From Erysipelothrix inopinata (GTDB taxonomy: Bacteria; Bacillota_I; Bacilli_A; Erysipelotrichales; Erysipelotrichaceae), in NCBI RefSeq assembly GCF_014396165.1, contig NZ_CP060715.1, positions 450,001 through 482,000 on the forward strand: DNA of 32,000 bases. The letters are read 5' to 3'. Position numbers and translations under genes: made by a program. Below, piece by piece: positions 4,526-32,000 of the stretch. The notes beneath the pieces are model-generated. The model had not been told where the DNA came from, made no database searches, and saw only the letters and a program-made list of their open reading frames with translations. Every line of letters starts with the position of its first letter. The stretch's first letter is position 1.

Positions 4526-5203
4526 ATGAAGATAAGTTTGGTTGAAGAAATTACAGGAATCAGTGCGAGCACAATTCGTTACTATGAACAGATTAATCTT
4601 GTTATACCCATTCGCGATGAAAACAATTATCGAAATTACTCCGATAGTAATGTAGAAACTCTCTTAGAAATTAAGTTATTAAAAAAACTAGGATTTCCTT
4701 TAAAAGTAATCGAGAAAATTATTAATAAAGAAATGTCGTTACAACAGGGAATTGATACTGCAATTCATAATTTAGAACAACAAAAAAGTGATATCGACGA
4801 TTCTCTACAACTTCTTAACCTTCTTAAAGAGAGTCATCATGATAAGAAAAAAATTGATACTCGAATTTATGTCGGCAAATTATTTGATTTTAAAGTAAGC
4901 AATCATCCCTTCATTGACTTTTGTGACTCAATTTCTGATTTGTTGGCTAAATATACGTTCACATTGAGAAAAGGATTCTACCCCGAGGAAATCATTTCGA
5001 CACCTCGAGATTTTACATTAGAGCTTTTAAGATATGCTCAAAGAGAAGAAAAAACACTGGAAATTCTCAATGAGAGTATGCACCCAGTGATTATAGTGAA
5101 CGGTCGTCAATACCAAGCAATCCGAACTTTTGAGAAATATGGTATTCCAATTGTATATTTCAAACCCAAATCTTCTTCGGATGATAACACAATACATCAA
5201 TAG
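4526..5203 (+). CDS. MerR-family transcriptional regulator
   Basis: The N-terminus EEITGISASTIRYYEQINLVIPIRDENNYRNYSDSNVETLLEIKLLKKLGFPLKVIEKI matches the MerR HTH plus wing. A coiled-coil follows, then an uncharacterised C-terminal domain of about 110 aa. Confidence 0.85.
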   Translation: MKISLVEEITGISASTIRYYEQINLVIPIRDENNYRNYSDSNVETLLEIKLLKKLGFPLKVIEKIINKEMSLQQGIDTAIHNLEQQKSDIDDSLQLLNLLKESHHDKKKIDTRIYVGKLFDFKVSNHPFIDFCDSISDLLAKYTFTLRKGFYPEEIISTPRDFTLELLRYAQREEKTLEILNESMHPVIIVNGRQYQAIRTFEKYGIPIVYFKPKSSSDDNTIHQ

Positions 5204-5298
5204 AAATATGATAATAATTATGATATTATAATTTTACTTTGGGTCCGCTACATGAATGTCATGACCCTTAATTTGTGACTAAATTAAGGAGGACCACT

Positions 5299-6261
5299 AT
5301 GATACATTTAAGTCATATTTCTAAAAATTATAAGGTTCCGATTCGAGATGGGGGAATCAAATCTGCACTTAAGTCATTTGTCCATCGAGAATATCGTGAT
5401 ATCAAAGCACTCGATGATATCAGTTTTGATATTCCTAAAGGACAAATTGTTGGCTATATCGGGCCAAACGGGGCCGGGAAAAGCACCACTATAAAAATAA
5501 TGACCGGCATCCTAAGACCTGACCATGGAATCTGTACGATTGACAATATTTCCCCATTTTCAAATAGAAAGCAACACGCTAAACAAATTGGCGTGGTTTT
5601 TGGTCAACGCACTCAACTCTGGTGGGATATTCCGGTCATTGATTCGTTCGAACTTATAAAGGATATGTACGATATTCCTATTGTTGATTATCATGAGCGT
5701 CTTGCCGAACTCACTGATTTACTAAATCTCAATGATCTGCTTACGATGCCTACACGACAGCTTAGTTTGGGACAACGCATGCGTTGCGATATCGCTGCCG
5801 CACTTCTACATGATCCGAAGGTATTATTTTTAGATGAACCGACAATAGGTCTCGATGCTCCTTCGAAAGTAGCAGTAAGACAATTTATAAAAAAAATTAA
5901 TGAAAAGCATCAAACAACAGTTGTCCTTACAACACACGATATGCAAGATATTGAGTCCTTAGTAGATCGAATTATTCTAATAGGCAAAGGAAAAATACTT
6001 TTTGACGGAAGTATGATGGAGTTAAAAAAATCTTATCCAATGCGTAAGAATCTAAAAATTCAATACGAAGGATCACTCCGTCCAAGTTCACACTATATAA
6101 TAGAATCCGACACAGGAAATTATGCAACCTTGCTGATTGAAGGTTCTGTTCAGAAGGCATTAACACAGCTAAATACCGACTTGGTTATTCAAGATTTCGA
6201 AGTTGGTAGCGAATCATTAGATGACTTAATAATAAAAATTTACGAGGATTATGATATATGA
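5299..6261 (+). CDS. ABC transporter ATP-binding protein
   Basis: Walker A GPNGAGKST, signature LSLGQRMR, Walker B VLFLDEPT, H-loop TTHD. The start is placed at ATG 5299 (MIHLSHISKNY), which follows AAGGAGG (5286-5292), not at the GTG at 5275 used by the ORF track. Confidence 0.9.
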   Translation: MIHLSHISKNYKVPIRDGGIKSALKSFVHREYRDIKALDDISFDIPKGQIVGYIGPNGAGKSTTIKIMTGILRPDHGICTIDNISPFSNRKQHAKQIGVVFGQRTQLWWDIPVIDSFELIKDMYDIPIVDYHERLAELTDLLNLNDLLTMPTRQLSLGQRMRCDIAAALLHDPKVLFLDEPTIGLDAPSKVAVRQFIKKINEKHQTTVVLTTHDMQDIESLVDRIILIGKGKILFDGSMMELKKSYPMRKNLKIQYEGSLRPSSHYIIESDTGNYATLLIEGSVQKALTQLNTDLVIQDFEVGSESLDDLIIKIYEDYDI

Positions 6262-7037
6262 GAATATATTTATCCTATTTTAAAATTCGTTTTGTATCTG
6301 GATTGCAATATCGTAGTGCAGCACTCGCAGGAATGATTACCCAAGTAGTTTGGGGGATTCTTAGCATTACTTTTCTCAACATCTTTAATACCAACGTAAT
6401 GTCACATGATAATCTTTCTACTTATATTTGGCTAAATCAAGCGTTTCTTGCTATAACTGCGATTTGGGCAACCGATACAAGCATCTTTGATCTTATTGAA
6501 AATGGTGACGTAGCCCTTGAAGCGCTTCGTCCTGTAAATCTTTATAGTCTGTGGTTTATTCGAAATCTAGCATTTCGAATATCGCGATGTCTTCTACGAT
6601 TTGCGCCTGTAATTATCACAGCATTTTTACTTCCAAGTCCCTATAAAATGTCCCTTCCAAGTTCACCTCTTGTTTTTATCTACTTCTTAATCTCATTAGT
6701 TCTAACATTATTAATAGTTGTGGCAATTACAATGTGGATGGCAATTTTCACAATTCATATTAAAACCTCTTTAGGAATTCGCACATTATTTATGGCTATT
6801 TTTGATTTGTTTTCAGGGACTAATATTCCTCTTATTTTCTTCCCAAGTTGGCTACAAAGAATTTTATCATTAACATTCTTCATTGGTTTACAAACTGCAA
6901 CTTTCAACATTTATCTCGGTCTTGCAAACCCGCTACCAACCCTAGTACTTCAATTTGTTTGGGCGGTTATACTTATTGGATCTGGTTACTTCGCTATGCA
7001 ACATGCTCTTAAACACTTAGAAATTGTAGGAGGTTAA
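6258..7037 (+). CDS. ABC-2-type transporter permease
   Basis: 259-aa polytopic membrane ORF. Its start overlaps the ATPase stop by 4 nt. Probable ABC2_membrane_6-like family, not verified. Confidence 0.72.
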   Translation: MRIYLSYFKIRFVSGLQYRSAALAGMITQVVWGILSITFLNIFNTNVMSHDNLSTYIWLNQAFLAITAIWATDTSIFDLIENGDVALEALRPVNLYSLWFIRNLAFRISRCLLRFAPVIITAFLLPSPYKMSLPSSPLVFIYFLISLVLTLLIVVAITMWMAIFTIHIKTSLGIRTLFMAIFDLFSGTNIPLIFFPSWLQRILSLTFFIGLQTATFNIYLGLANPLPTLVLQFVWAVILIGSGYFAMQHALKHLEIVGG

Positions 7038-7038
7038 A

Positions 7039-7803
7039 ATGAAACTCTACTTCAAACTGATTGGAATGCATTTTAAATCTCAAATGCAGCATCGAACATC
7101 ATTCATTACTCTCACAGTTGGGCAAGCACTCATGACAGTCAGTGCAGTGATGAGTGTTCTTATTCTTATGTCTCAGTCTCAAAATAATACAGAGTTCACA
7201 ATCATGGAAATGTTACTTGCGGGATCGATTGTGAATGCTACATTCTCTCTCGCAGAGTGTTTCTTCAGAGGCTTTGATTTATTTCCTCGACTGCTTGGAA
7301 ATGGCCAGTATGAGCGGATGCTTCTTAGGCCCAAAAATATTCTAATTCAGATTTTAGGAAGTACCATGGAATTTAGTCGACTCGGAAGAACTTTTGTTGC
7401 TCTTGTTATTTTGATATTTGTTTTACTTCAAGTCCCCATCCAACATGGTTGGATGATTCTACTGATGATACTTTCTGGAATCGTTCTCTTTGGTTCTTTA
7501 TTCATTATTTACGGAGCTTGCAGTTTTTACACCACTGATTCCCTCGAGGTCTTTAACATCTTCACGGATGGAGGGCGCCAGTTTGGTCAAATTCCATTTA
7601 ATCTTTATGGCAAGAATATTTTAGTATTCGCAACTTTCGTCATTCCTTATGCTTGTTTTCAATATTATCCACTGTTAGTTATTCTCGGAAAAAGCGTCTC
7701 CACGATTTATATGCTCGCACCTCTCGCATCGTTTATATTCATAATACCTGCCATGTTAATCTGGCAGCAAGGAATGCGTCATTATCAATCTACAGGTTCT
7801 TAA
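7039..7803 (+). CDS. ABC-2-type transporter permease (second subunit)
   Basis: 254-aa polytopic membrane ORF. It starts 1 nt after the previous stop and is a distant paralogue of the preceding permease. Confidence 0.72.
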   Translation: MKLYFKLIGMHFKSQMQHRTSFITLTVGQALMTVSAVMSVLILMSQSQNNTEFTIMEMLLAGSIVNATFSLAECFFRGFDLFPRLLGNGQYERMLLRPKNILIQILGSTMEFSRLGRTFVALVILIFVLLQVPIQHGWMILLMILSGIVLFGSLFIIYGACSFYTTDSLEVFNIFTDGGRQFGQIPFNLYGKNILVFATFVIPYACFQYYPLLVILGKSVSTIYMLAPLASFIFIIPAMLIWQQGMRHYQSTGS

Positions 7804-7850: not shown

Positions 7851-9962
7851 TTATTGGTATTTCTTCTTCGAGACATAAATCATTACAACACCTGCACTGA
7901 TCATAAGTGTAGTGAGAACAAGTATCTTCTTACTGGTTGATTCAACACCGGTCTTCGGCAATTCATCTTTAGACTTATCCTTCGGATCCACCTTAGGTTT
8001 TGGTGTCTCAGAATTTTTATCATAGATGTAATCTACTACAATCTCCGATTCTCCAAAGGTTCCCGTTGCGTTAGTAGGAAGTTTGCTTTCGTTGAGTGTA
8101 TACCCTTCAATTATATTAATATAATCTACTCCTGAGACATTGTAAGAATCGCCAACAATACCATTGACTACTTTCTGTGTTGCTATTTCTTGTAGGTTAG
8201 TATCAAGGTATCTTATAATTACGTTGCCATTTTTTACTTCTTCCTTATTGAAGACATAGGTTACTTTTTGAGAATCCAACGTGATAAAGCCTTTCGCATT
8301 GCTTGGCAGTTTAGAATCATCAAGTGTGTATCCTGAAATTTCAGTTACATATTCGGAAGTAGAAGCATCATAAGGATTCCCTACGATACCTTCAATAGTT
8401 TGTTGTGGAGCTATCTCATTATTATTCGTATCCACATACTCAACAATAACCTTACCATTTTTAATTACTTCTTTAGTATAGACATATGTTACTGTTTGAG
8501 GATCAGAGGTAATCGTACCTTTCGCATTGCTTGGTAGTTTAGAATCATCAAGTTTGTATCCTGAAATTTCAGGTACATATTCCGAAGTAGAAGCATCGTA
8601 AGAATTTCCTACGTTACCTTCAATAGTTTTCTCCGGAGCAATCTCATTATTATTCGTATCTACATACTTCACAACAACCTTACCATTTTTAACTTCTTCT
8701 TTAGTATAAACATAGGTCACTGTTTGAGGATCGGAGGTGATCGTACCTTTCGCATTCACAGGTAGTTTTTCCACATTTAATGTGTATCCGGGAATATTAA
8801 TTTTATATTCTGACGTCGATGCATCATATGTTTTTCCGATGATTCCATTAATTTTAAGTTGAGGTGCAATTTCAGTATTACCTTCATCTACAAAACGAAC
8901 GGTTACCGTTTGATATTTGGGAGTTTCATATAAACTTAGCGAATGCGTATACTGACCACTCGAGATAGCATAATCTGTAAAGTTATTCGGAACTGCATAA
9001 CTTCCGTGTGGATTATTAAACCGAATGTTTAAATAGATGCGGTCAAGATTCTTAAAATCCTCCGATGTGACATTATCTACAATAATTGAGTCATCAGTAA
9101 TAACTACACGACTACCATCGACAGAATTTTGATCAAACTTCAATATCATGTTGTAAGGGTCTGTCTTTGTCGTGAATGGGGGTTGATATCCATCAAAATT
9201 GGTAAGTCGATTTGGGTAGAGTGAAATTGGAATCGTTAATTTTAAGTTTTCTTCATCGAATTGTAATAAGTCTTTATCGACTCGAGATTCTGATGAATCA
9301 TTCCCTACCGACTGACTGTATGCCATTAACTTTTTAAGTGATTTCATTTCATTAATGGGTCTAAAATCAGAGACACTGGTGAACTGCATTAAGAGACTTT
9401 CTAATTTTTCTGATTTTGTTAGTGGCTCGATACTTTCGATTCCTTTTGTTTCACTAATTTGCAGATAAATCAAAGACTTAATGTTTGCTACTTTTACTAG
9501 ACTTTTTGAAGTTATTGATGTTCTTTGTAGTGATAAGTAAGTTACTGAATCTGCAAGTTGTGGAAAGTTCGCATCATTTAGAGACGGTGTTGTGATAGAT
9601 ACAAAAGCAAGTTTTCCCATTTTTTCTAATGGACTAAAATCACTGATTAGATTTCCTTCCGCAATATTGAGATTTGTTACTTCCGTTGCGTATTCGAGCC
9701 CCTTAATATTTGAAATTGGCTCTGAGCTTTCTTTTATATCAATGTTACGCAAGGACTTCATTGATTCTTTTGTTAGTTGATCTACAGGAATACCCATCTG
9801 GGAAGCAATCTTTTTTTGTAGATTTTCATCCGGCATCCACTCACTTACATCGGATGTAGAAACCACGGTATTATTCTGAGGTGTTGTTTCAGCAAGAACA
9901 GGGAAAACACACCCTGCCAAGATAATACAAATGGATAAGATACCTATTTTTTTCTTTTTCAT
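7851..9962 (-). CDS. LPXTG-anchored surface protein with internalin-like LRR region and four MucBP-like repeats
   Basis: N-terminal signal sequence MKKKKIGILSICIILAGCVFPVLA. An LRR-like segment runs from NIKGLEYATEVTNLNIAEGNLISDFSPL onward. Four repeats of about 76 aa follow (V.V.YVD.N..EIAP...I.G..G..YDASTSEY...I.GY.L...KLP.NAKG.ITSD.Q.VTYVY.K). The C-terminus has LPKTG, a hydrophobic helix and KKKYQ. Confidence 0.85.
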   Translation of the reverse strand: MKKKKIGILSICIILAGCVFPVLAETTPQNNTVVSTSDVSEWMPDENLQKKIASQMGIPVDQLTKESMKSLRNIDIKESSEPISNIKGLEYATEVTNLNIAEGNLISDFSPLEKMGKLAFVSITTPSLNDANFPQLADSVTYLSLQRTSITSKSLVKVANIKSLIYLQISETKGIESIEPLTKSEKLESLLMQFTSVSDFRPINEMKSLKKLMAYSQSVGNDSSESRVDKDLLQFDEENLKLTIPISLYPNRLTNFDGYQPPFTTKTDPYNMILKFDQNSVDGSRVVITDDSIIVDNVTSEDFKNLDRIYLNIRFNNPHGSYAVPNNFTDYAISSGQYTHSLSLYETPKYQTVTVRFVDEGNTEIAPQLKINGIIGKTYDASTSEYKINIPGYTLNVEKLPVNAKGTITSDPQTVTYVYTKEEVKNGKVVVKYVDTNNNEIAPEKTIEGNVGNSYDASTSEYVPEISGYKLDDSKLPSNAKGTITSDPQTVTYVYTKEVIKNGKVIVEYVDTNNNEIAPQQTIEGIVGNPYDASTSEYVTEISGYTLDDSKLPSNAKGFITLDSQKVTYVFNKEEVKNGNVIIRYLDTNLQEIATQKVVNGIVGDSYNVSGVDYINIIEGYTLNESKLPTNATGTFGESEIVVDYIYDKNSETPKPKVDPKDKSKDELPKTGVESTSKKILVLTTLMISAGVVMIYVSKKKYQ
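8020..8906 (-). repeat. Tandem 228-bp coding repeats (MucBP-like modules), four copies
   Basis: The landmark CTTTCGCATT recurs at 8291, 8519 and 8747, giving a 228-bp period. The two central copies are near-identical at DNA level and the outer copies are more diverged. Confidence 0.75.
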
Positions 9963-12444: not shown

Positions 12445-14685
12445 TTAAACAGTACGTTCGTGAGCTGTTCTCATGAGAACATCAAGTTGTTGTTCTTTTG
12501 TTAATTCAACAAAACGAACAGCATATCCTGAAACACGAATTGTAAGGTTTGGATATTTCAATGGGTTTGCCATTGCATCTTCAAGAAGTGAGTTATCAAA
12601 TACGTTAACGTTTAGGTGATATGCTCCTTGTGAGAAGTATCCGTCCATAATTCCACGTAAGTTATTGACACGTTCTGCGTCAGATTTACCAAGTGAAATT
12701 GGAGCGATTGTTTGAGTATTAGAAATACCATCTAATGCACAGTTATAGTCTAATTTAGCTGTTGAGTTTAATGAAGCGAGAAGACCATTACGTTCTGCAC
12801 CGTATGATGGGTTTGCTCCTGGAGCAAGTGGAACACCACGACCACGGCCATCAGGTGTGTTACCTGTAGCTTTACCATAAACAACGTTAGATGTAATTGT
12901 TAACAAGCTAAGTGTTGGTGTTGAATTACGATATGTATGGTGACGTTTGATTTGAGTCATGAAGTATTGTAATGCCCAGTTTGCTAAGTCATCAGCACGG
13001 TTATCATCATTACCGTAACGTGGGAATTCTCCTTCAATTTCAAAGTCTACAGCGATTCCATTTTCATCACGAATTGGTTTAACTTGTGCATATTTGATTG
13101 CTGATAATGAGTCAGCAACGTGTGAGATCCCTGCGATACCTGTAGCAAATGTACGTTTAAGATCTGAATCCATAAGTGCTAATTGTGATTTTTCATATGC
13201 ATATTTATCGTGCATATAGTGAATTGAATTTAGAGTATTTACATAAAGTTCTGCAAGCCAATCCATCATGTCTTGGTAAGCAAGTTTTACTTCTTCAAAG
13301 TCTAATACTTCTGAAGTAATTGGACGATAACGTGGACCAACTTGTGCTCCTGTAATTTCGTCAACACCACCATTGATTGCATAGAGTAATGCTTTAATCA
13401 AGTTAGCACGTGCTCCAAAGAATTGCATGTCTTTACCAATAACTGTTGCGGAAACACAACATGCGATTGCTGCATCATCTGAACCCCATTTTTCACGGAG
13501 TAATTCATCATTTTCAAATTGAATTGATGACGTTTCAATAGCAATGCGTGATGCGAAAGTACGGAAACCTTCAGGTAGTGAATCACAGTATAATACTGTT
13601 AAGTTTGGCTCTGGTGATGGTCCCATGTTAATGAGTGTATGAAGAAGACGGAAGTCAGTTTTTGTAACTAATGAACGTCCATCAAATGCCATACCAGCAA
13701 TTGAAAGTGTTGCCCAAATTGGGTATCCACTGAATAACGAGTTGTATTCTGGTGTACGAGCAAATTTAACCATACGTAGTTTCATAACTAAGTGGTCAAT
13801 AAGTTCTTGAGCTTCTTTTTCAGAAATAACTCCTGCTGCAAGGTCACGTTGGATATAGATATCTAAGAATGCTGAGATACGTCCAATTGACATCGCTGCA
13901 CCGTTATTTTCTTTGATAGCTGCTAAGTAACCAAAGTATAACCATTGTACTGCTTCTTGAGCATTTGCTGCTGGTTGAGAAATATCGCAACCATAGCTTG
14001 CTGCCATTTCTTTCATGTCGCTTAATGCACGAATTTGTTCGTTGATTTCTTCACGTAAACGGATAACATCGTCTGTCATTGTACGGTAACCTGTATGGTT
14101 TAAGTCGTTTTTCTTAGCTTTGATTAAGTAATCGATTCCGTAAAGAGCAACACGTCGGTAGTCACCAATTATACGTCCACGACCGTATGCATCTGGTAGA
14201 CCCGTAATAATTTTATTCTTACGAGCTGCACGCATCTCTGGTGTATAAACATCAAAGACACCTTGGTTATGTGTTTTACGCCATTTTGTAAAGATATGAA
14301 CAAGTTCTTCATCCGGTTCGTAGCCATTACTTTCTAATGATTTCACAGCCATTCCGATTCCACCAAATGGAATAAATGCTTGTTTTAGTGGTTCATCTGT
14401 TTGGAACCCTACGATTTGTTCTTTATCTTTATTCATATAGCCTGGGCCATGTGAAGTAACAGTTGAAACAATCTTTGTATCCATATTGTAAACGCCATCG
14501 TGTTCACGTTGATATGCATTCATTTCCTCAAGTTGTTCCATGAGATCCAATGTGTTTTGCGTTGGTCCTTCTAAGAATTCATCATCCCCGCGATACTCTG
14601 TATAGTTTTCTTTAATGAAATTACGAGTATCAATGTTTTCTTTCCAATAGTTTCCTTTGAAACCATTCCATTGATTATACATCAA
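12445..14685 (-). CDS. pflB: Formate C-acetyltransferase (pyruvate formate-lyase)
   Basis: 746 aa. Glycyl-radical motif RVSGYAVRF near the C-terminus and catalytic Cys pair in AIACCVSAT. The length is typical of PflB. Confidence 0.95.
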
Positions 14686-22345: not shown

Positions 22346-22708
22346 TTACTTTCTTGATGAGTTACGATTGTTTTCAAATCGACCTTCACGATCACAACAA
22401 TCATTGCGATTATCACCACGACGTGACCCTCTCATCGAGCGATGATGACCGGATTCATTATCCGTCATATGGTCATTACCATTCATATGATTTCTTCCGT
22501 TCATATGATTTTCATCATTCATGTGATCTTCATGATTTTCAAAATCTTCATCTGTCATGTGATTGTTGTTGTTATGACGCTCTGTCATAACTTCACGATC
22601 TGTATCATTTCCATTAATCATATCTGATGCTGCAGAAATTGTAAGTGGATTTACTAGAAGTATTGCAACTAGTGCCATTGCAGTTAAAATGCTGTATTTT
22701 TTATTCAT
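22346..22708 (-). CDS. Secreted low-complexity His/Met/Asn/Asp-rich repeat protein of unknown function
   Basis: Signal peptide MNKKYSILTAMALVAILLVNPLTISA. The mature region has no hydrophobic core and carries five (N/D)HM(T/N)(D/G) repeats, a GHH and a CC pair. RBS AAGGAG lies 6 nt before the ATG, and the gene has its own promoter. Confidence 0.6.
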   Translation of the reverse strand: MNKKYSILTAMALVAILLVNPLTISAASDMINGNDTDREVMTERHNNNNHMTDEDFENHEDHMNDENHMNGRNHMNGNDHMTDNESGHHRSMRGSRRGDNRNDCCDREGRFENNRNSSRK

Positions 22709-23071: not shown

Positions 23072-24148
23072 CTATTTCCGTTTCTTTTTCAGGTATGTAT
23101 GAACACCAAACGCTCCTGCAGCAGCTCCGGTAGCAGTGACAGCCACTCCAACAGCAACCGATCCGCTACTCTCAACTTCTAAGGGAATAGAAAATCGTCC
23201 ACTGAGAGTAGTAACTTCTATTATGTTTTCTTCTTCATTAAACTCCAACTCTTTTCCACCGATTGAAGTATCATTCACTTTCAATCCTTGAATATTAAAT
23301 TTTTTAATATGTTTATAATCTTTATTAGAAATTTTCATGAAATTTCCACCTGGAGACAATTCAATATTTTCTCCACTTGAAATTACTGTAATTTTATAAT
23401 CATCAAATTTCATGTTTTCATCAATATATATAATTGAATAAACATATTTTTTTGATTTTGATTCATCTTCTGAAGTAACTTCAACATTGATTTTAGATTC
23501 TTTAAAATTTTCTGATTTATCCATTTCCACTTTATAACTTGCATCTTTGTTTTTTAAATCAACTTGAATATTCGTTGGAAATGGCTGTTCCGCTAGATAT
23601 ATATTGCTTTGATTCAAATTCAAAGGAACAAAGCCCTTCGTTTTTGTTTCGAGTTTTATATTATCAATCTCTACACTCTCAAGGCGTTCTTTTTCTTCTT
23701 TAGCACGTTGTTCTTCCTCAAGACGTTCTTTCTCTAGTCTTTCCGCTTCCAGTTTTTCAGCTTCTAATCTTTCCGCTTCAATTCTTTCGTCCTCAATCCT
23801 TTTTGCTTCTGCTTTCTCTGCCGCGATTCTTTCATTTTCTACTCGAGCAGCTTCTGACTTTTCAGCAGCAACTCGTTTTTGTTCCGAATTGTTTGATGCA
23901 GGTGCGGGTGCTGAACCACCACCACAAGGATTAGAGTAACCAAGGTTATCACCATCAGGATAATAACGATTACCTTTTTTTGATGCACGATGCCAGTGAT
24001 TATCTGGACCATGGCTGCCATACAATTGTCCATTACAACTCACTACATTACCTGAACTTATTTGACCACCACTTGCCTCAATACTCATTCCAAAAGTGAT
24101 GAACATTAACATTGCTAGAAGTGATACCTTTATTTTACGATTCTTCAT
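23072..24148 (-). CDS. Cell-surface protein: signal peptide, Cys/His module, Glu/Arg/Ala-rich coiled coil, beta-rich domain, C-terminal membrane anchor
   Basis: Signal sequence [25 protein letters not shown]. Then [18 protein letters not shown]...NPCGGG. Then (A/I)E(K/R)(L/A)EAE(R/K) heptad-like repeats. The C-terminus has [25 protein letters not shown] followed by KKKRK. Confidence 0.7.
23680..23875 (-). repeat. Imperfect short tandem coding repeats (ER/EK coiled-coil segment)
   Basis: Reiterated CTTTCCGCTTC / TTTTCAGCTTC-type units encode [52 protein letters not shown]. Confidence 0.5.
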
Positions 24149-26114: not shown

Positions 26115-26798
26115 TTAACAGATATCTATTTTTTTGTTGGATTTAATTTCAAAGATATAGAGAACCATCATAGCAACCATAAAGACTAAGAAGACGGAAA
26201 ATACTATCACACTCCCATGCGGATTCTTAAATTTACTTATTATCGAATAATACCCAGGACTAAAAAACATAAATAAGTAAAAAAATGCATTCGATGTATT
26301 CGATATCAACAGAGGTCTTTGTGTCTTAAAGTATAGTGTCATTACAATAATGGATACTACAACCATTGTCGTTAAAATAATTAACTGAGTTAATCCAAAG
26401 GATATCCCTGGAAAATACGGTAGTAAAGATTTAAAACAACCAACATATACAAACGATACCATCATCGTTGTAATTAGATAAGGTATTAGAGCTCTGTAAA
26501 ATAGATATTTTCTTATTTCTGTTTCGCTTTCTTTGCCTGAAAGTATATAGGAGAGAACTGTAGGTTCCTGTATAGAAACATAGGATGATTTAAGAAAATA
26601 TATAAATGCTACCGCATTAAATATAAACACAATGATTTGGTTCGTATAGAAATAATCCAACATAAGCGTTTGATTATTTTCTAGCAAATCAATAGCGATA
26701 TAATTATCAGCAGTAGAGGCAACCAACAGTGAAAGAACCATCACGAGGAGAATAAAAGCATAGTAACGTAAGCATGACCTGTTTATGTAGTTTTTCAT
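26115..26798 (-). CDS. Module A: 227-aa polytopic membrane protein (putative ABC membrane component)
   Basis: About 6 predicted helices. A 4-nt ATGA overlap joins it to the upstream NBD gene. It is the same length as, and colinear with, its paralogue at 29038-29721. Shared motifs: F(Y/I)RALIPYL and the C-terminal KK(I/V)D(I/L)C. Confidence 0.7.
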   Translation of the reverse strand: MKNYINRSCLRYYAFILLVMVLSLLVASTADNYIAIDLLENNQTLMLDYFYTNQIIVFIFNAVAFIYFLKSSYVSIQEPTVLSYILSGKESETEIRKYLFYRALIPYLITTMMVSFVYVGCFKSLLPYFPGISFGLTQLIILTTMVVVSIIVMTLYFKTQRPLLISNTSNAFFYLFMFFSPGYYSIISKFKNPHGSVIVFSVFLVFMVAMMVLYIFEIKSNKKIDIC

Positions 26799-27613
26799 AC
26801 AGTTCCTCTTTCTAACATAATTAATAAATCATGGAGTTTGATTTCACTGACTTCATTACTATTGTTTTTTGTAGTATCAATTAATACTTCTACAAAGTCT
26901 CTCTTTTTTCGAATCCCCACAACTCCTTCAGTCGGAATTTTCTCTTTACTTCCTGTCCACAATTTATATCGGTCTTGAAGTTCTAAGACACTTCCTTCAA
27001 AGAATTTCTTCCCATTCTTCATATAAACTAAATGATCACAAATATTTTCAATGTCTTCAACATTATTAGATGCGATGACTACATAGTTTTCTTCATTGAG
27101 TAAGTATGTCTGAATCATATTTTTAAACTCTATTTTATTCTTTTCATCAAGCCCATTGGTAGGTTCATCTAACAGTAGCATCTTTGAATTGCTTAATTTC
27201 ATCAACTCAAACATATATTTCTTTTGCTGACCTTTTGACAATTCTCTTATTTTTAAGTGTGTTGGAATGCCAGCACTGATTAAGTTTCTTTCGAATACTC
27301 GAGCATTAAACCCATCATAAACTTTCTCAAACAAAACAGTACTACTGAATACTCCCATATGAGGAGTAACAGGGACAGAATCCGGCATATAAAAAACAGT
27401 ATTATTTTTCTTGTAGTCTTCTAGCGAATATGAATCAACAGAATACGTTCCTTGATCCAAACTTAGGGCGCCACATAGGATTTTTAACAGCGAACTCTTT
27501 CCCCCTGAATTACGGCTCACAATCATGGTTACGAGGCCCTTGGGAATTTCTAGGTAATCGATGTTAATTTCCAAGTTTCTTCTACTCTTAGTTGCATTTT
27601 CTAATACAATCAT
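26795..27613 (-). CDS. Module A: ABC-type ATPase subunit 2 (partly degenerate)
   Basis: P-loop SRNSGGKSS, signature LSKGQQKK, Walker B MLLLDEPT. The H-loop position is ASNN, with no His. It carries a C-terminal extension of about 70 aa. Confidence 0.8.
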   Translation of the reverse strand: MIVLENATKSRRNLEINIDYLEIPKGLVTMIVSRNSGGKSSLLKILCGALSLDQGTYSVDSYSLEDYKKNNTVFYMPDSVPVTPHMGVFSSTVLFEKVYDGFNARVFERNLISAGIPTHLKIRELSKGQQKKYMFELMKLSNSKMLLLDEPTNGLDEKNKIEFKNMIQTYLLNEENYVVIASNNVEDIENICDHLVYMKNGKKFFEGSVLELQDRYKLWTGSKEKIPTEGVVGIRKKRDFVEVLIDTTKNNSNEVSEIKLHDLLIMLERGTV

Positions 27614-27618
27614 TTGAA

Positions 27619-28356
27619 TTACCTCCTTTGGTAGGCACTTACAAATTCTTTGATATCAATTACTTGCGAGTCTGATTCTATGAGTTGATGCGCTATATTT
27701 GAAAATTCCACAATATCAGCATTGATGATAGGATATCCTTCATCAAAATATAAAACATAATCCACAACATCATTAACCTCTTCGATATTATGTGTACTTA
27801 TTATTGTGACACTTTCATTTTCATATGTGTAATCTATAATATCGTCAAGAATTTCACTTCTAACAAAAGGATCAATACCTGCCATCGGTTCATCAAAGAT
27901 AAGAAGTTTCGGTTTGTGAGATAAGGCAACAGCTACCATGAGCCTTTGTTTCATCCCTAAAGAGAGATTCTTTGAACTCGATGTTTCATCAACATGATAC
28001 TTATCTAAGTACGCTAAGCAAGTATCTCTATCCCACAGATTACCAAATAGGGTTTCATGAAGTTTTAATATCTCCGAAACTTTTGTAGCAGGTCCGAAAG
28101 GAAATAAATCAGGAATGTAAGCAAGATCGTTATTGAACCAGTCCTTATCATTAAAATTTATTATTCCAGAATCTTTATATTTAATTCCAGTTAGAAGTTT
28201 AATAAATGTCGTCTTTCCAGAACCGTTTTCTCCGAAAACTCCAATTATTTGGCCACCTTGTACATCTAAATTAACAGGACCACATTTGAATTTCACATTT
28301 AAAGCATTATCTTTCAACAACTCTCTTTGAAGCTTTTCAATATGTAGTTTATTCAT
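27619..28356 (-). CDS. Module A: ABC-type ATPase subunit 1 (canonical motifs)
   Basis: Walker A GENGSGKTT, signature LSLGMKQR, Walker B LLIFDEP, H-loop STHN. The start is placed at ATG 28356 (MNKLHIEKL), 8 nt after AGGAGGG. Confidence 0.85.
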   Translation of the reverse strand: MNKLHIEKLQRELLKDNALNVKFKCGPVNLDVQGGQIIGVFGENGSGKTTFIKLLTGIKYKDSGIINFNDKDWFNNDLAYIPDLFPFGPATKVSEILKLHETLFGNLWDRDTCLAYLDKYHVDETSSSKNLSLGMKQRLMVAVALSHKPKLLIFDEPMAGIDPFVRSEILDDIIDYTYENESVTIISTHNIEEVNDVVDYVLYFDEGYPIINADIVEFSNIAHQLIESDSQVIDIKEFVSAYQRR

Positions 28357-28369
28357 CGTATTTGCCCTC

Positions 28370-28897
28370 CTATTCGAAATCAAGTTTTTTAAGTTTATTC
28401 AAGCGGTATCCATCTAGAAATACTGATACCACAGTTATTACTAGTTTAGCTATAATATTCTGACTCATACTAAATAATATCCATATTACTGTTACAACTA
28501 GGAGATCCAGTAATATATATGCGAAATCCTTTGAATTTTTTCCTAAGTTCAACTTGAAATACATTGCTAGCGATAACCAAGTAATTACCATTAACGCAAA
28601 TGACAAATCAAAATTAACCTGGAATCCTTTGATATAAAGAACTACAGATGTGATTATAAAAAATATTATTGTATCGAGTAACATACTTTTTATAAATTCA
28701 TTGATACTGAATGGTAAGGTTTTAAAGTAACCCTGAGCGATTGAAGTATCTCTTATAGTAAATGATGAATAACCTAAAGCAATTCCCCATGCAAATTCGT
28801 TTCCCCAATCATTTCTAACGAGTAACATTACTACAATAAGAGCCCAGATTAAATTCTTGAAGTTATTTCTCATGTTAATCTTGAAAATTCTAATCAT
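28370..28897 (-). CDS. Module A: 175-aa polytopic membrane protein of unknown family
   Basis: About 5 helices. It shares GYF.TLP, MYFKLN.GKNS and the C-terminal YRL..L.KLDFE with its paralogue at 31292-31816. Confidence 0.7.
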   Translation of the reverse strand: MIRIFKINMRNNFKNLIWALIVVMLLVRNDWGNEFAWGIALGYSSFTIRDTSIAQGYFKTLPFSINEFIKSMLLDTIIFFIITSVVLYIKGFQVNFDLSFALMVITWLSLAMYFKLNLGKNSKDFAYILLDLLVVTVIWILFSMSQNIIAKLVITVVSVFLDGYRLNKLKKLDFE

Positions 28898-29006
28898 AAA
28901 TTTTCCCTCCTTGCCCTTTTACTACAATAAGAAAATATTAATAACTATTTCTTTCAATTATTTCGTTTAGCATCATTGACTTACTGTTGTCTGGGAGTTC
29001 TATACG
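28898..29006 (-). pseudogene. Relic of the 3' end of a YtrA-type gntR gene (duplication scar)
   Basis: An ungapped hand alignment to 31809-31924 gives about three quarters identical positions over roughly 116 nt, including an identical TAAGTCAATGATGC. The corresponding frame reads ...RIELPDNSKSMMLNEIIERNSY*YFLIVVKGQGGKIYD*, with an in-frame stop. No HTH-coding part is present. Confidence 0.55.
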
Positions 29007-29037
29007 TGCTCATATTATTTATGATGATACTTTTTAT

Positions 29038-29721
29038 TTAACAAAGATCTACTTTTTTACTTGATTTAATTTGGTATAAGTAATAAGCATCCATTCCTAA
29101 CATCACCACAATAAACACTAGACTAAGTATTCCTCTTCCAGAGAAATCCGCATCATTTATTAATGTCGGAAGGTAAGTAAATGCAAATAAGAATACAACA
29201 TACATAATTACTTTTTTCTCAAGAGAAGGTTTAAAAACATTTTCTGTTTTATAGTATATGACCATAGATATTATCGTAATCGCAACAATACATAATAGAA
29301 TTATGTTCTGTAGTGGATCAACAACAATTCTGGGGTTATATTGCGTTAGTGCCTCGAATTTCGAATAAAATATCATGTAGTTTATAACAGTAACAGCCAG
29401 GTAAGGAATTAATGCTCTTATAAACAGAAACTCCTTAATATCTTCTTTAGCATCTACTCTTGACAATAAAAATGATAGATTCGTAGTTGTAAATGTATAT
29501 TCGTAAACACTCCCTAGTAAATATACAAATGCAAATGTATTCATCATAAATACTACTAATTGACTAATATATATCTTCTCTATTATTTGCTCTATTGAAG
29601 AATCAAATAAATAGACTAAACCAAGATTAAATGATGATGCAGCAATCATACTTGTAATTGCTAGTACTAACATAATCAATCCATAATACCACTTGCTGGA
29701 TTTTCTAATAAATTTTTTCAT
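29038..29721 (-). CDS. Module B: 227-aa polytopic membrane protein (paralogue of 26115-26798)
   Basis: Same length and topology as the module A protein. A 4-nt overlap joins it to the upstream NBD gene. It ends in KKVDLC. Confidence 0.7.
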   Translation of the reverse strand: MKKFIRKSSKWYYGLIMLVLAITSMIAASSFNLGLVYLFDSSIEQIIEKIYISQLVVFMMNTFAFVYLLGSVYEYTFTTTNLSFLLSRVDAKEDIKEFLFIRALIPYLAVTVINYMIFYSKFEALTQYNPRIVVDPLQNIILLCIVAITIISMVIYYKTENVFKPSLEKKVIMYVVFLFAFTYLPTLINDADFSGRGILSLVFIVVMLGMDAYYLYQIKSSKKVDLC

Positions 29722-30536
29722 CGTGAACCCCTTTCTAGCATGTTTAGAAGATCGTTGAGTTCAAGTCTTTCTACTGGGGCAAGGTCAAACACATACGTAT
29801 CAATCAAAGCCTCTAATGTCTCTTTATTTCTTCTGATTCCAACTACTCCTAGTTTGGGTAATTCCTCTTCTTTTCCTTGCCACATTTGATATCTTTCTTG
29901 CATTTCTAAGGCAGTTCCTTCAAAGAATACTTCGTTATTTTTAAGGTAGATTAAATGATCACCAAACATTTCAATATCTTCCGCATTGTTTGAGGCCATC
30001 ACGACATAATTGCTTTCATTGATTAGATGCGTTTGAATCAGTTGTTTTGCGTTTAGTTTGTTTTCTTCATCCATGCAACTCATGGATCCATCTATGAGTA
30101 ACATCGCATCGTTAGTCAACTTGAATAATTCCAACATATATCGTTTTTGTTGTTCTTTAGAAAGTGCCTCTAATTTAAGATGTGGGGGAATATCTGCTAA
30201 CTTTAGAGCTCTTTCTAACTTCCTTGAATCAAAACTAGGAATCATATCTTCAAAGAGATCGATATTTTTAAATACAGTCATGTTTTGTTTCCCAACTGCT
30301 TTGTCTGGTGCATAAAAAATCCCATGATACTTCTTGTATTTGTCAATTGACATATCATCAATTTTTATGACTCCGGCATCAAATTCTATGGCTCCACTTA
30401 TGAGCTTTAATATTGTACTCTTTCCAGAAGATTTTTTTCCCACAATCATTGTTACAAGACCTTGGGAAATTTCGAGGTGATCAATTTCAAGAACCAAGTT
30501 TTTACGTTTCTTAGTAACATTTTCTATTATAATCAT
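29718..30536 (-). CDS. Module B: ABC-type ATPase-like subunit 2 with degenerate Walker B and signature
   Basis: 272 aa, colinear with 26795-27613. Walker A GKKSSGKST is intact. The signature is LSKEQQKR (G to E). Walker B is MLLIDGS, so the catalytic Glu is absent. The H-loop position is ASNN. Confidence 0.75.
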   Translation of the reverse strand: MIIIENVTKKRKNLVLEIDHLEISQGLVTMIVGKKSSGKSTILKLISGAIEFDAGVIKIDDMSIDKYKKYHGIFYAPDKAVGKQNMTVFKNIDLFEDMIPSFDSRKLERALKLADIPPHLKLEALSKEQQKRYMLELFKLTNDAMLLIDGSMSCMDEENKLNAKQLIQTHLINESNYVVMASNNAEDIEMFGDHLIYLKNNEVFFEGTALEMQERYQMWQGKEEELPKLGVVGIRRNKETLEALIDTYVFDLAPVERLELNDLLNMLERGSR

Positions 30537-31282
30537 TTTTGATTCCTCCTGTTATATTCCTCTACAAATTCTGTAATATTCATTTTGTTGTTATCCGTAT
30601 TGAGAATTCTATTGGCTTCTTCTGGAAAATCAAATTTGCTGGCATTGATTATAGCACTACCCTGTTCAAAATATAGAATATGATCAACTACATCATTCAC
30701 AACTTCAGTATCATCTGTAGAAATGAATGTGATACTTTCATATTCATACGTACATTTAATAATATCATCATAAATTTCTTTTCTTATAAACGGTTCAAAC
30801 CCTTCTTTAGGTTCATCAATGATTAGAATTTTTGCATTATGAGACAAGGAGACAGCTACGATTAGTTGTTGTTTCATTTCCAAAGATAAATGTAAAACTT
30901 TTAGTGTTGGATCTATATTATATCTAATAAGAAAATACTTCCATTTATCATCGTCCCAACTATCCCAATATAATGTCTGATACGTTGTTATTATATCTTT
31001 AACTTTCATTTTTGAATTAAATGGAAATTCCGAAGGAATATACGCGAGTTCATTTTTAAACCATGTTTTTTCGTTAAAAATCACCACCCCTGAATCAGAA
31101 TATTTAATTCCCGACAATAATTGTATAAATGTTCTTTTTCCAGACTCTTTTTGTCCAAATATTCCTATTATTTTATTTCCGGATATATCTAGGGAAACAG
31201 GCCCTACTTTGAGCACATTTTTTTGTGGTTTTTCTACAGTTATCGTTCTTTGCAGACTCTCTATTTTGATTCTATTCTCCAT
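30533..31282 (-). CDS. Module B: ABC-type ATPase-like subunit 1 with degenerate Walker A, signature and H-loop
   Basis: P-loop GQKESGKRT, with Arg where Ser/Thr is required. The signature is LSLEMKQQ. Walker B ILIIDEP is retained. The H-loop position is STDD, with no His. Confidence 0.75.
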   Translation of the reverse strand: MENRIKIESLQRTITVEKPQKNVLKVGPVSLDISGNKIIGIFGQKESGKRTFIQLLSGIKYSDSGVVIFNEKTWFKNELAYIPSEFPFNSKMKVKDIITTYQTLYWDSWDDDKWKYFLIRYNIDPTLKVLHLSLEMKQQLIVAVSLSHNAKILIIDEPKEGFEPFIRKEIYDDIIKCTYEYESITFISTDDTEVVNDVVDHILYFEQGSAIINASKFDFPEEANRILNTDNNKMNITEFVEEYNRRNQK

Positions 31283-31291
31283 GACGTCCTC

Positions 31292-31816
31292 CTACTCGAA
31301 ATCCAATTTTTGTAAAGTCTTAAGTCGGTACACTACACCTGCAGTAGGTATTAGCAATACAAGTATTTTTAAGTTTATTGATGGTGCTAAAGTAAATAGG
31401 AACCATACAGCGACTATTGCAGCTAAATCCAAGAACCAGTACTTTTTTTGTAACGAGTTTTTTCCAACATTAAGTTTGAAATACATAGACGAAAGCAGAA
31501 TTTCTAACATATAAATTAATATGATCTGATCAGTAAAAGCAACATCTTGAATCATAGCAACTGTCATGTAAATTGTTATTATTACTAACGTTTCTATTAA
31601 TTTTTGATAAATTATATTTTTCATTTCTATAGGAAGTGTACTAAAATAGCCTACTGACAATCTTCCTGGGTTTGATGATAAAACCGTATACATAAGAATC
31701 CAAAACATATTCCTCTCAAGGGTTGAATCTGGATCAATGAAAATCATAATCAAAAGGGTAGTACCTATAATATAAAGAAATCTGTCTCTAATTGTACTTA
31801 CTAACATGTTAATCAT
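31292..31816 (-). CDS. Module B: 174-aa polytopic membrane protein (paralogue of 28370-28897)
   Basis: Its start overlaps the gntR stop by 8 nt (ATGATTAA). It ends in KLDFE followed by TAG-GAGG, the same junction as in module A. Confidence 0.7.
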   Translation of the reverse strand: MINMLVSTIRDRFLYIIGTTLLIMIFIDPDSTLERNMFWILMYTVLSSNPGRLSVGYFSTLPIEMKNIIYQKLIETLVIITIYMTVAMIQDVAFTDQIILIYMLEILLSSMYFKLNVGKNSLQKKYWFLDLAAIVAVWFLFTLAPSINLKILVLLIPTAGVVYRLKTLQKLDFE

Positions 31817-32000
31817 AAACTTTTCCTCCTTGCTCTTTCACTTCATTGAGAAAATCCTCATAACTTATTCCTGAATTTTTTGCTTGTTGCATCATTGACT
31901 TAATGTTATTAGCCAGTTCTTTACGATAGATAGTTTGAAAAGTTTCTGGTTTCTTTTCGGAAACATAACAACCTTTCCCCGCTACCATCACGACATAACC
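31809..32000 (-). CDS. GntR-family (YtrA-subfamily-like) transcriptional regulator, 5' end outside the window
   Basis: The reading frame is open to the window edge. ...GYVVMVAGKGCYVSEKK matches the wing of the GntR winged helix (G.GtfV). The short helical tail that follows is typical of YtrA-type regulators, which precede ABC operons. Confidence 0.6.
   Translation of the reverse strand, partial: GYVVMVAGKGCYVSEKKPETFQTIYRKELANNIKSMMQQAKNSGISYEDFLNEVKEQGGKVYD

Follow-up and report, generated by a model that had tools for sequence, protein, structure and literature searches.

The window analysed here is a stretch of 32,000 nucleotides (nt) of the Erysipelothrix inopinata genome (NCBI RefSeq assembly GCF_014396165.1, contig NZ_CP060715.1, positions 450,001 to 482,000), which carries at 26115-31816, on the minus strand, two tandem four-gene ATP-binding cassette (ABC) modules, B and then A, downstream of a PmtR-like GntR regulator gene. 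Both modules have the gene order M1 (membrane protein), N1 (ATPase), N2 (ATPase) and M2 (membrane protein), and single cassettes of the same family, X and Y, occupy the corresponding place in related loci. Judged from sequence, module B is, with moderate confidence, a selectively maintained ABC module that does not hydrolyse ATP; a non-hydrolysing but functional role is the best reading because every ATP site that its subunits could form appears compromised, and its genes are intact and under purifying selection. A preliminary description of this DNA had placed the two module B ATPases within 29718-31282, listed their altered motifs and called them full length; the genes and all listed motif strings are present there, and neither stops nor frameshifts interrupt them, B aligning to A without gaps. 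The genes of module B are the following.

31292..31816, minus strand: module B M1, 174 amino acids (aa), 30% identical to A_M1; Shine-Dalgarno sequence GGAGG intact
30533..31282, minus strand: module B N1 ATPase, 249 aa; several degenerate motifs
29718..30536, minus strand: module B N2 ATPase, 272 aa; nucleotide-binding domain (NBD) and C-terminal extra domain
29038..29721, minus strand: module B M2, 227 aa; 33% identical to A_M2 and 51% to X_M2

ATP-site motifs of module B

The two ATPases, B_N1 and B_N2, carry these motifs.

31130..31156, minus strand: B_N1 Walker A, GQKESGKRT; Lys kept, Mg-binding Ser/Thr changed to Arg, fourth Gly to Glu
30866..30889, minus strand: B_N1 signature, LSLEMKQQ; Gly changed to Glu, Arg to Gln
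30791..30829, minus strand: B_N1 Walker B and D-loop, ILIIDEPKEGFEP; Asp-Glu pair kept, D-loop Asp changed to Glu
30710..30724, minus strand: B_N1 H-loop, ISTDD; His changed to Asp
30414..30440, minus strand: B_N2 Walker A, GKKSSGKST; canonical, more so than SRNSGGKSS of A_N2
30141..30164, minus strand: B_N2 signature, LSKEQQKR; Gly changed to Glu (LSNEQQ in the related locus L063)
30069..30104, minus strand: B_N2 Walker B and D-loop, MLLIDGSMSCMD, with LLIDGSMSCMD; catalytic Glu changed to Gly, six consecutive residues rewritten
29985..29999, minus strand: B_N2 H-loop, MASNN; Asn for His, family-wide

The module A counterparts read GENGSGKTT, LSLGMKQR and STHN in N1, and LLLDEPT, LSKGQQ and ASNN in N2. 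Beyond the changes tabulated in the preliminary description, the D-loop of B_N1 has passed from GIDP to GFEP and its Q-loop position from Asp to Ser. The Walker B and D-loop block of B_N2 has passed from DEPTNGLD to DGSMSCMD. Compared with consensus patterns, the Walker A of B_N2 agrees with GxxGxGK[ST] and that of B_N1 departs from it (Arg at the Ser/Thr position); the Walker B of B_N1 (IIDE) agrees with hhhhDE and that of B_N2 (LLIDGS) does not; and both ATPases deviate from the signature pattern xSxG[QM] (LSLEM, LSKEQ) and from the H-loop His (Asp in B_N1, Asn in B_N2).

The assignment of these motifs is upheld by phmmer alignments, for which EcfA2 (4mki_B), TM0544 (1vpl), ModC (3d31) and ABCA4 served as references. 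GQKESGKRT of B_N1 pairs with GHTGSGKST of EcfA2, and against solved NBDs LSLEMKQQ pairs with LSGGQKRR, IIDEPKEGFEP with ILDEPTAGLDP and STDD with the SH of the H-loop; in B_N2, GKKSSGKST pairs with GPNGAGKTT, LSKEQQKR with LSGGEQQR, LLIDGSMSCMD with LLLDEPLSALD and ASNN with SSHN. An AlphaFold2 model of B_N2 (mean predicted local distance difference test score (pLDDT) 91.4, predicted template modelling score (pTM) 0.88) is matched by Foldseek with probability 1.00 to TM_1403, TM0544, LptB, MJ0796 and other ABC NBDs, in keeping with the fold of RecA-like and helical subdomains. All four ATPases of the locus exceed the 25-bit gathering threshold of PF00005 (ABC_tran), with 47.1 bits for B_N1, 48.8 for B_N2, 83.6 for A_N1 and 54.0 for A_N2.

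The second ATPase seems degenerate family-wide: the H-loop Asn is common to cassettes A, B, X and Y, the N2 of an outgroup operon, about 35% identical, is likewise without the His, and the P-loop takes the form SxxSGGKS in A, X and Y, B_N2 alone having a canonical one. The remaining states of module B are exceptional when set against the 124 nearest single-NBD representatives for N1, taken from an exhaustive HMMER search, and 75 relatives of N2. The Walker A Ser/Thr is present in 123 of the 124 N1 relatives (the remaining sequence is gapped), the Walker A Gly that is Glu in B_N1 in 118, the signature Gly and the D-loop Asp in 123 each, and the H-loop His in 121. Among the N2 relatives the signature Gly and the Walker B Glu and Pro are present in 75/75, the Walker B Thr in 74/75, and the D-loop Gly and Leu in 74/75 and 75/75; unlike the cassettes of this locus, these distant relatives also have the H-loop His (74/75) and the P-loop Gly (74-75/75). 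The motif states of B are common to none of these roughly 200 relatives. Since cassettes A, X and Y and outgroups of 27-35% identity are canonical at the positions lost in B, the B states are derived, and they are identical in all three known B loci (the window, L001 and L063), across up to 11% protein divergence. The homologue alignment that the preliminary description had proposed thus finds the substitutions both derived and lineage-conserved.

The changes extend well beyond the motifs. Columns invariant in every other cassette are altered in B at 45 of 133 positions in N1 and 36 of 132 in N2, the corresponding figures for X being 8/96 and 8/104. The substitutions, most of them single-nucleotide changes, include N45K, G46E, T50R, D84S, G135E, R139Q, I162F, D163E, H190D and N191D in B_N1, and S33G, N35K, G37S, G128E and the block E150G-P151S-T152M-N153S-G154C-L155M in B_N2. 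A compensated frameshift was considered as the source of this six-residue block and rejected.

The signature Gly-to-Glu change has occurred in parallel in both B ATPases, with GAA where the other cassettes have GGN, and new Arg or Lys residues stand in the P-loops alongside the signature Glu (T50R and N45K in N1, N35K in N2). Such a combination could be adaptive, through charge pairing across the dimer, and not the product of random decay. It is tempting to go further and picture module B as a nucleotide-free ABC complex in which the signature Glu and the basic P-loop residues would form interface salt bridges replacing ATP as the "glue"; this is a speculative idea to which little weight is given here. 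If it were true, the dimer and the membrane subunits would be locked in one conformation, providing a permanent binding site, conduit or sensor and not a pump.

The consequences for the ATP sites depend on how the subunits pair. In module A and in cassettes X and Y, N1 is fully consensus, and N2 combines the H-loop Asn and a Gly-poor P-loop with a good signature. This pattern fits a heterodimer with one consensus and one degenerate site, provided that N1 and N2 do heterodimerise, and to that extent supports what the preliminary description had proposed for module A, the non-canonical P-loop of A_N2 being a further degenerate feature. In an N1:N2 pair of module B, the former consensus site would be hit by the Walker A and H-loop changes of N1 and by the signature Gly-to-Glu change of N2, and the other site, without the catalytic Glu and the H-loop His, would face the Gly-to-Glu change of N1; in N1:N1 and N2:N2 homodimers each subunit would carry its own defects twice. 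Together with the mixed pairs considered below, module B is predicted to have no consensus composite site under N1:N2, N1:N1, N2:N2 or mixed A/B pairing, independently of stoichiometry, so that the earlier view of two compromised composite sites can be widened to every possible site.

Mixing of subunits between the modules, which the preliminary description had suggested as obligatory, would not rescue catalysis. It is improbable that the B membrane subunits are powered by the A ATPases, or that mixed A/B complexes are obligatory, with the B ATPases acting only as adaptors or regulators. The modules are predicted to be co-transcribed, with no terminator-like site between them, and M2 of B evolved at a normal rate while the B NBDs changed, as such an arrangement would allow; but both B signatures have the Gly-to-Glu change, and the signature acts in trans, so that the Glu of a B subunit would spoil its partner's site. 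In an A_N1:B_N2 pair the sole consensus site would be hit by LSKEQ of B_N2, and in a B_N1:A_N2 pair the Walker A and H-loop of one site would be dead, while the other site, itself without an H-loop His, would face LSLEM. Moreover, the membrane subunits of A and B are only 30-33% identical, a common NBD docking surface being therefore not assured, and continued selection on B_N2 would be left unexplained if the A NBDs served the B membrane subunits.

ATP binding is plausible only for the P-loop of B_N2, B_N1 being without the Mg-coordinating hydroxyl. Of the ATP-binding but non-hydrolysing role put forward in the preliminary description, the non-hydrolysing part is thus retained as the best reading, and the ATP-binding part would apply to B_N2 and not to B_N1. 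That module B is still ATP-driven through unconventional catalytic chemistry, its motif changes retuning the kinetics, is very improbable indeed: the Walker A Lys and the Asp-Glu pair of Walker B are still present in B_N1, as are a perfect P-loop and the Walker B Asp in B_N2, but several changes are combined at each site, in states that none of the relatives shares. Loss of the Walker A Ser/Thr hydroxyl is strongly inactivating, as is a CFTR G551D-type change at the signature Gly, a position presumably equivalent to the second signature Gly changed in B_N1 and B_N2. Degenerate sites with a Glu-to-Asp change can hydrolyse slowly in other ABC proteins, whereas a Walker B Glu-to-Met change in BSEP appears to block hydrolysis completely (PMC7756269); in the staphylococcal PmtCD transporter, the PmtC Walker B mutant E145Q fails to secrete phenol-soluble modulins (PSMs), and a structural need for the signature Gly is described (PMC7527219).

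Cassette lineages and selection on module B

The cassette family is narrow. An exhaustive HMMER search of 1.84 billion representatives returned one cluster, the next match being 35% identical, and no further B-like protein. A profile scan of genome contigs with the M2 alignment found no relative, and with the N2 alignment one true relative, in an Erysipelothrix sp. metagenome-assembled genome (MAG), plus 59 generic ABC ATPases; a metagenome scan with B_N1 gave one unrelated 25%-identical match and nothing else. Five related loci were recovered by word-indexed searches and contig look-ups; they are listed together with the outgroup.

L001 (Logan): B and A; 98-100% protein identity to the window
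L063 (Logan): B and A; B_N2 89% identical
L003 (Erysipelothrix sp. MAG): A only; flanks of ~85% DNA identity, fully syntenic
L002 (Logan): single cassette X
L065 (Logan): single cassette Y; flanks of 80-88% identity
L066 (Logan): outgroup operon of ~35% identity

The cassettes lie at one allelic locus between the PmtR-like GntR gene and ThrE genes (window 26115-31816; L002 406-3196; L065 406-3188; L003 8718-11499). The flanks of L002 are 97.7-97.9% identical to those of the window, as expected of a conspecific strain, as far as the opening codons of M1 on one side and the final ~38 nt of M2 on the other, yet cassette X between them is only ~67% identical to A or B. Because of these near-identical flanks, divergent cassette and sharp breakpoints, the cassette is regarded as an interchangeable allele within a species. 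In other species A or Y is the sole cassette. Neighbour-joining trees, built for each of the four genes, pair B with X as its sister (bootstrap 98/59/93/99) and group A with Y, and A and B are therefore best seen as representatives of two old, deep cassette lineages and not as a fresh duplication. The treatment of A and B as simple duplicates in the preliminary description is accordingly abandoned, and recent in-place duplication of A as the origin of B was rejected. Synonymous divergence (dS) along the locus is strongly mosaic: between the window and L063 it is 0.035 in B_N1 and 0.23 in B_N2, and between the window and L001 it is 0.12 in A_N1 and 0.01-0.03 in its neighbours, which points to recombination within cassettes among strains. 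The junction between the modules bears on how they came together.

28898..29037, minus strand: B-A spacer, 140 nt; decayed copy of the last ~110 nt of the GntR gene

This copy of the GntR end is 75-79% identical to the 3' ends of live GntR genes, contains an in-frame TAA and still supplies the ribosome-binding site (RBS) for A_M1. It looks like the scar expected from tandem joining of a unit made of GntR 3' end and cassette by recombination in the conserved regulator gene.

The evolution of module B was accelerated in its ATPases. In Tajima relative-rate tests of B against X, with A or Y as outgroup, N1 has 54-61 changes unique to B against 13-18 unique to X (p 1e-8 to 3e-5) and N2 has 42-47 against 13-16 (p 1e-5 to 9e-4), whereas M1 has 28-33 against 14-20 (p 0.04-0.24) and M2 has 21-24 against 13-22, which is not significant. 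The B ATPases have evolved 3-4.7 times faster than those of X (3.0-4.7 fold for B_N1). At the level of sequence the acceleration is thus shown to be concentrated in the B ATPases, across the ATP-site motifs of both, with M2 ordinary and M1 at most mildly faster.

As all three B loci share the degenerate residues, the divergence among them post-dates the catalytic loss, and the selection acting since then can be estimated. The ratio of nonsynonymous to synonymous differences per site (pN/pS), computed for the window against L063, is 0.20 in B_M1 (P for neutrality 3e-6; 0.14 in A_M1), 0.25 in B_N1 (P 0.03, with only 10 changes; 0.06 in A_N1), 0.26 in B_N2 (P 2e-7; 0.17-0.19 in A_N2) and 0.37 in B_M2 (P 0.003; 0.15 in A_M2). 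By this measure all four B genes are shown to have been under purifying selection since the common ancestor of the B loci, the evidence from B_N1 alone being weak. The preliminary description had named dN/dS as a check on its proposal and obvious pseudogenes in close relatives as what would speak against it; the ratios of 0.20-0.37 are those of purifying selection, and the copies in L001 and L063 are intact.

The most serious rival explanation, unlikely but deserving attention, is that module B is a redundant copy becoming a pseudogene, in which selection on the ATPases lapsed beside the active module A, and that intact frames and a dN/dS below 1 reflect only residual constraint, such as the avoidance of misfolded membrane proteins or of polar effects on the downstream A genes. 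B does lie in the same operon as, and upstream of, the fully competent module A; a single cassette suffices in conspecific or related strains (L002, L003, L065); pN/pS of B exceeds that of A in all four genes; and the altered columns include those of the catalytic motifs, normally the most constrained, along with many other invariant ones. On the other hand, the pN/pS values after catalytic loss are significantly below 1 in all four genes (P for neutrality 0.03 to 2e-7), no stop, indel or frameshift is present in any of the 12 B gene copies of the window, L001 and L063, and the RBSs are intact, so that B does not look like a pseudogene. When the B stem was simulated neutrally, with substitutions alone and no indels, the frame stayed open in 3.3% of runs for N1 and 5.7% for N2, and both NBD frames would stay open in ~0.2% of cases. 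Whole-module relaxation would also have speeded M2, whereas the acceleration is NBD-specific, and the P-loop of B_N2 has moved towards consensus (S33G).

Several points nonetheless weigh against a maintained, non-hydrolysing module B. The differences of B_N1 from L063 comprise 5 synonymous and 5 non-synonymous changes, and those from L001 comprise 5 non-synonymous and 0 synonymous ones, the weak spot of the case for selection and a point in favour of decay. The B genes are somewhat less constrained than those of A (pooled NBDs, Fisher p = 0.051, borderline), which would also fit slow decay. Only three B-type loci are found in ~15 billion public proteins, and the selection tests therefore rest on few changes; in addition, the membrane subunits of the cassette family match no known family.

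If module B is nevertheless a maintained, non-hydrolysing module, its history and role may be outlined as follows. Module B is a complete M1-N1-N2-M2 cassette of the X/B lineage, predicted to be expressed, and stands in tandem with the A-type cassette downstream of it; the two would have been joined through recombination where the 3' end of the regulator gene is conserved. Protein evolution in the two B ATPase genes accelerated in a burst that replaced residues in nearly every ATP-site motif, which would have left the module unable to hydrolyse ATP, and purifying selection has acted on all four genes since. The B complex would still assemble, its NBDs being structural or nucleotide-binding, and not nucleotide-splitting, parts of a membrane complex, and the useful activity would reside in the B membrane subunits. 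These subunits could bind an amphipathic peptide or shield the cell against it, or they could sense or modulate the active module A beside them; the value of module B might also lie in nucleotide-independent or binding-only behaviour. Module A, with its one remaining consensus ATP site, would perform the energy-dependent export.

Locus layout and other features of the window

The genes on either side of the spacer complete the locus.

31809..32000, minus strand: 3' end of the regulator gene, short YtrA-type GntR, cut by the window end; translation ends ...GYVVMVAGKGCYVSEKKPETF...
28370..28897, minus strand: module A M1, 175 aa; orthologue in the Erysipelothrix sp. MAG locus L003
27619..28356, minus strand: module A N1 ATPase, 245 aa from an ATG with RBS; all motifs canonical
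26795..27613, minus strand: module A N2 ATPase, 272 aa; Walker B and signature canonical, H-loop Asn, P-loop SRNSGGKSS
26115..26798, minus strand: module A M2, 227 aa

The TTG start of A_N1 at 28383 given in the open reading frame (ORF) list (27619-28383) is probably wrong: the ATG at 28356 is preceded by TAGGAGGG, and the 245-aa protein starting there agrees with the gene calls of L001 and L063 and with an ORF listed for L003. Full-length orthologues of the regulator, in L001 and L003, match PF00392 (GntR) and score 102 bits with the NCBIfam model PmtR. The module A genes are followed by a ThrE-family pair and a cyclase gene, and this minus-strand string makes up the last 6 kb of the window. 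The eight cassette genes look like one operon behind the repressor gene, because their junctions are tight (one 9-nt gap, then two 4-nt overlaps, one of them between B_N1 and B_N2, with the overlapping start and stop codons intact), all genes of both modules have good Shine-Dalgarno sites, and neither a terminator-like site nor, on the coding strand, a promoter-like one occurs in the B-A spacer. The membrane subunits M1 and M2 have no Pfam or NCBIfam match at E <= 0.01, their profiles find nothing among Protein Data Bank (PDB) sequences at E <= 10, the PmtCD entries included, and M1 and M2 have no detectable homology to each other. The AlphaFold2 model of M2, built from a 2-sequence alignment, is poor (mean pLDDT 60.8) and was not used for fold comparison.

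A second, unrelated small ABC system lies at 4526-7803, where a MerR-family regulator accompanies a single ABC ATPase (328 aa) and a pair of membrane proteins, one matching ABC2_membrane_6 and the other without a Pfam match. It is followed at 7851-9962 by an LPXTG-anchored surface protein, likely an adhesin, with leucine-rich repeats, an internalin-K D2 domain and four MucBP domains. Two further proteins, both kept in L001 and L003 and both without a Pfam match, are a secreted 120-aa protein rich in His, Asn, Asp and Met repeats (HMTD/HMNG) at 22346-22708 and a 358-aa surface protein with a Glu/Lys/Arg-rich coiled-coil segment at 23072-24148. A pyruvate formate-lyase (PFL)-like gene at 12445-14685, ~17 kb from the cassette locus, has ~68% DNA identity to the PFL gene of L003 (5313-8277), which is the immediate upstream neighbour of the regulator there; L001 starts within that same gene, at its 3' end. 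Since the PFL gene of the window is only ~68% identical to the one beside the L003 regulator, two PFL paralogues are suggested in these genomes.

Relation to known ABC systems

The closest described counterpart of the locus is staphylococcal PmtR-PmtABCD, in which a short YtrA-type GntR repressor gene likewise stands directly upstream of an operon for two ATPases and two small membrane proteins. The best NCBIfam match of the regulator is PmtR, with full-length coverage, and that of all four ATPases is PmtA; PmtC (6xjh) is among the PDB matches, the signature is of the xSxGM type as in PmtC and PmtA (PMC7527219), and the C-terminal extra domain of N2 is a candidate counterpart of the PmtC basket domain. 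The differences are nonetheless considerable. The ATPases score 79-125 bits against a PmtA cutoff of 350 and 46-80 against a PmtC cutoff of 375, the regulator 102 bits against a PmtR cutoff of 200, and none of the Pmt models matches the membrane subunits; the genes are ordered M1-N1-N2-M2 and not A-B-C-D; and unlike Pmt with its active ATPases, N2 is degenerate family-wide here and both module B ATPases are predicted to be dead. The window showed no gene for a PSM-like peptide. Pmt itself comprises two separate homodimeric transporters, PmtAB and PmtCD (PMC7527219), a precedent over which an N1:N2 pair is mildly favoured in the present family by its pattern of a consensus site beside a degenerate one. 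The system thus appears to be distantly related to, and to work like, the PmtR-PmtABCD repressor-controlled ABC-2 peptide exporter, but not to be a member of it, because every equivalog test failed and the membrane subunits are unrelated by sequence.

The split in A, X and Y, with one NBD fully consensus, also resembles the degenerate-site heterodimers TM287/288, TmrAB, TAP1/2, CFTR, ABCG5/G8 and Pdr5, although separate small subunits with ABC-2-like NBDs set the present family apart from type I/IV exporters. The positions lost in B_N1 and B_N2 are the same as in CFTR G551D and Walker B Glu mutants; unlike those loss-of-function mutants, the B states have become fixed in nature, in a lineage that has since been under purifying selection. 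Retention of ABC architecture for a non-pumping role has a parallel in SUR1 and SUR2; SUR keeps a catalytically competent site and regulates a partner channel, whereas module B has no known partner. These SUR proteins, ABCC8 and ABCC9, are channel regulators (PMC7756269). PADLOC gave weak P-loop matches only, with no link to a defence system.

Degenerate ATP sites are a common feature of ABC proteins, but in the accepted view one consensus site remains to drive the cycle (PMC7756269). The kinds of substitution in module B (Walker B Glu, H-loop, signature and Walker A) are those listed for degenerate sites in the same review, yet unlike the heterodimers treated there, each of which keeps one consensus hydrolytic site, module B is predicted to have none. 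No description of an ABC module in which every site is degenerate came up in a limited search of the literature, which is absence of evidence only. If the reading of module B as maintained but non-hydrolysing is true, this natural "pseudo-ATPase" transporter would serve to test what an ABC architecture is capable of when no ATP is hydrolysed, whether binding, shielding, sensing or regulating a sister pump, and it would offer a clean comparison with a paralogue, A, in the same operon and a sister allele, X, in a conspecific strain, both predicted to be active. More broadly, with its highly divergent cassettes exchanged inside conserved flanks, the locus suggests that a Pmt-like system for peptide export or immunity is under diversifying pressure in Erysipelothrix.

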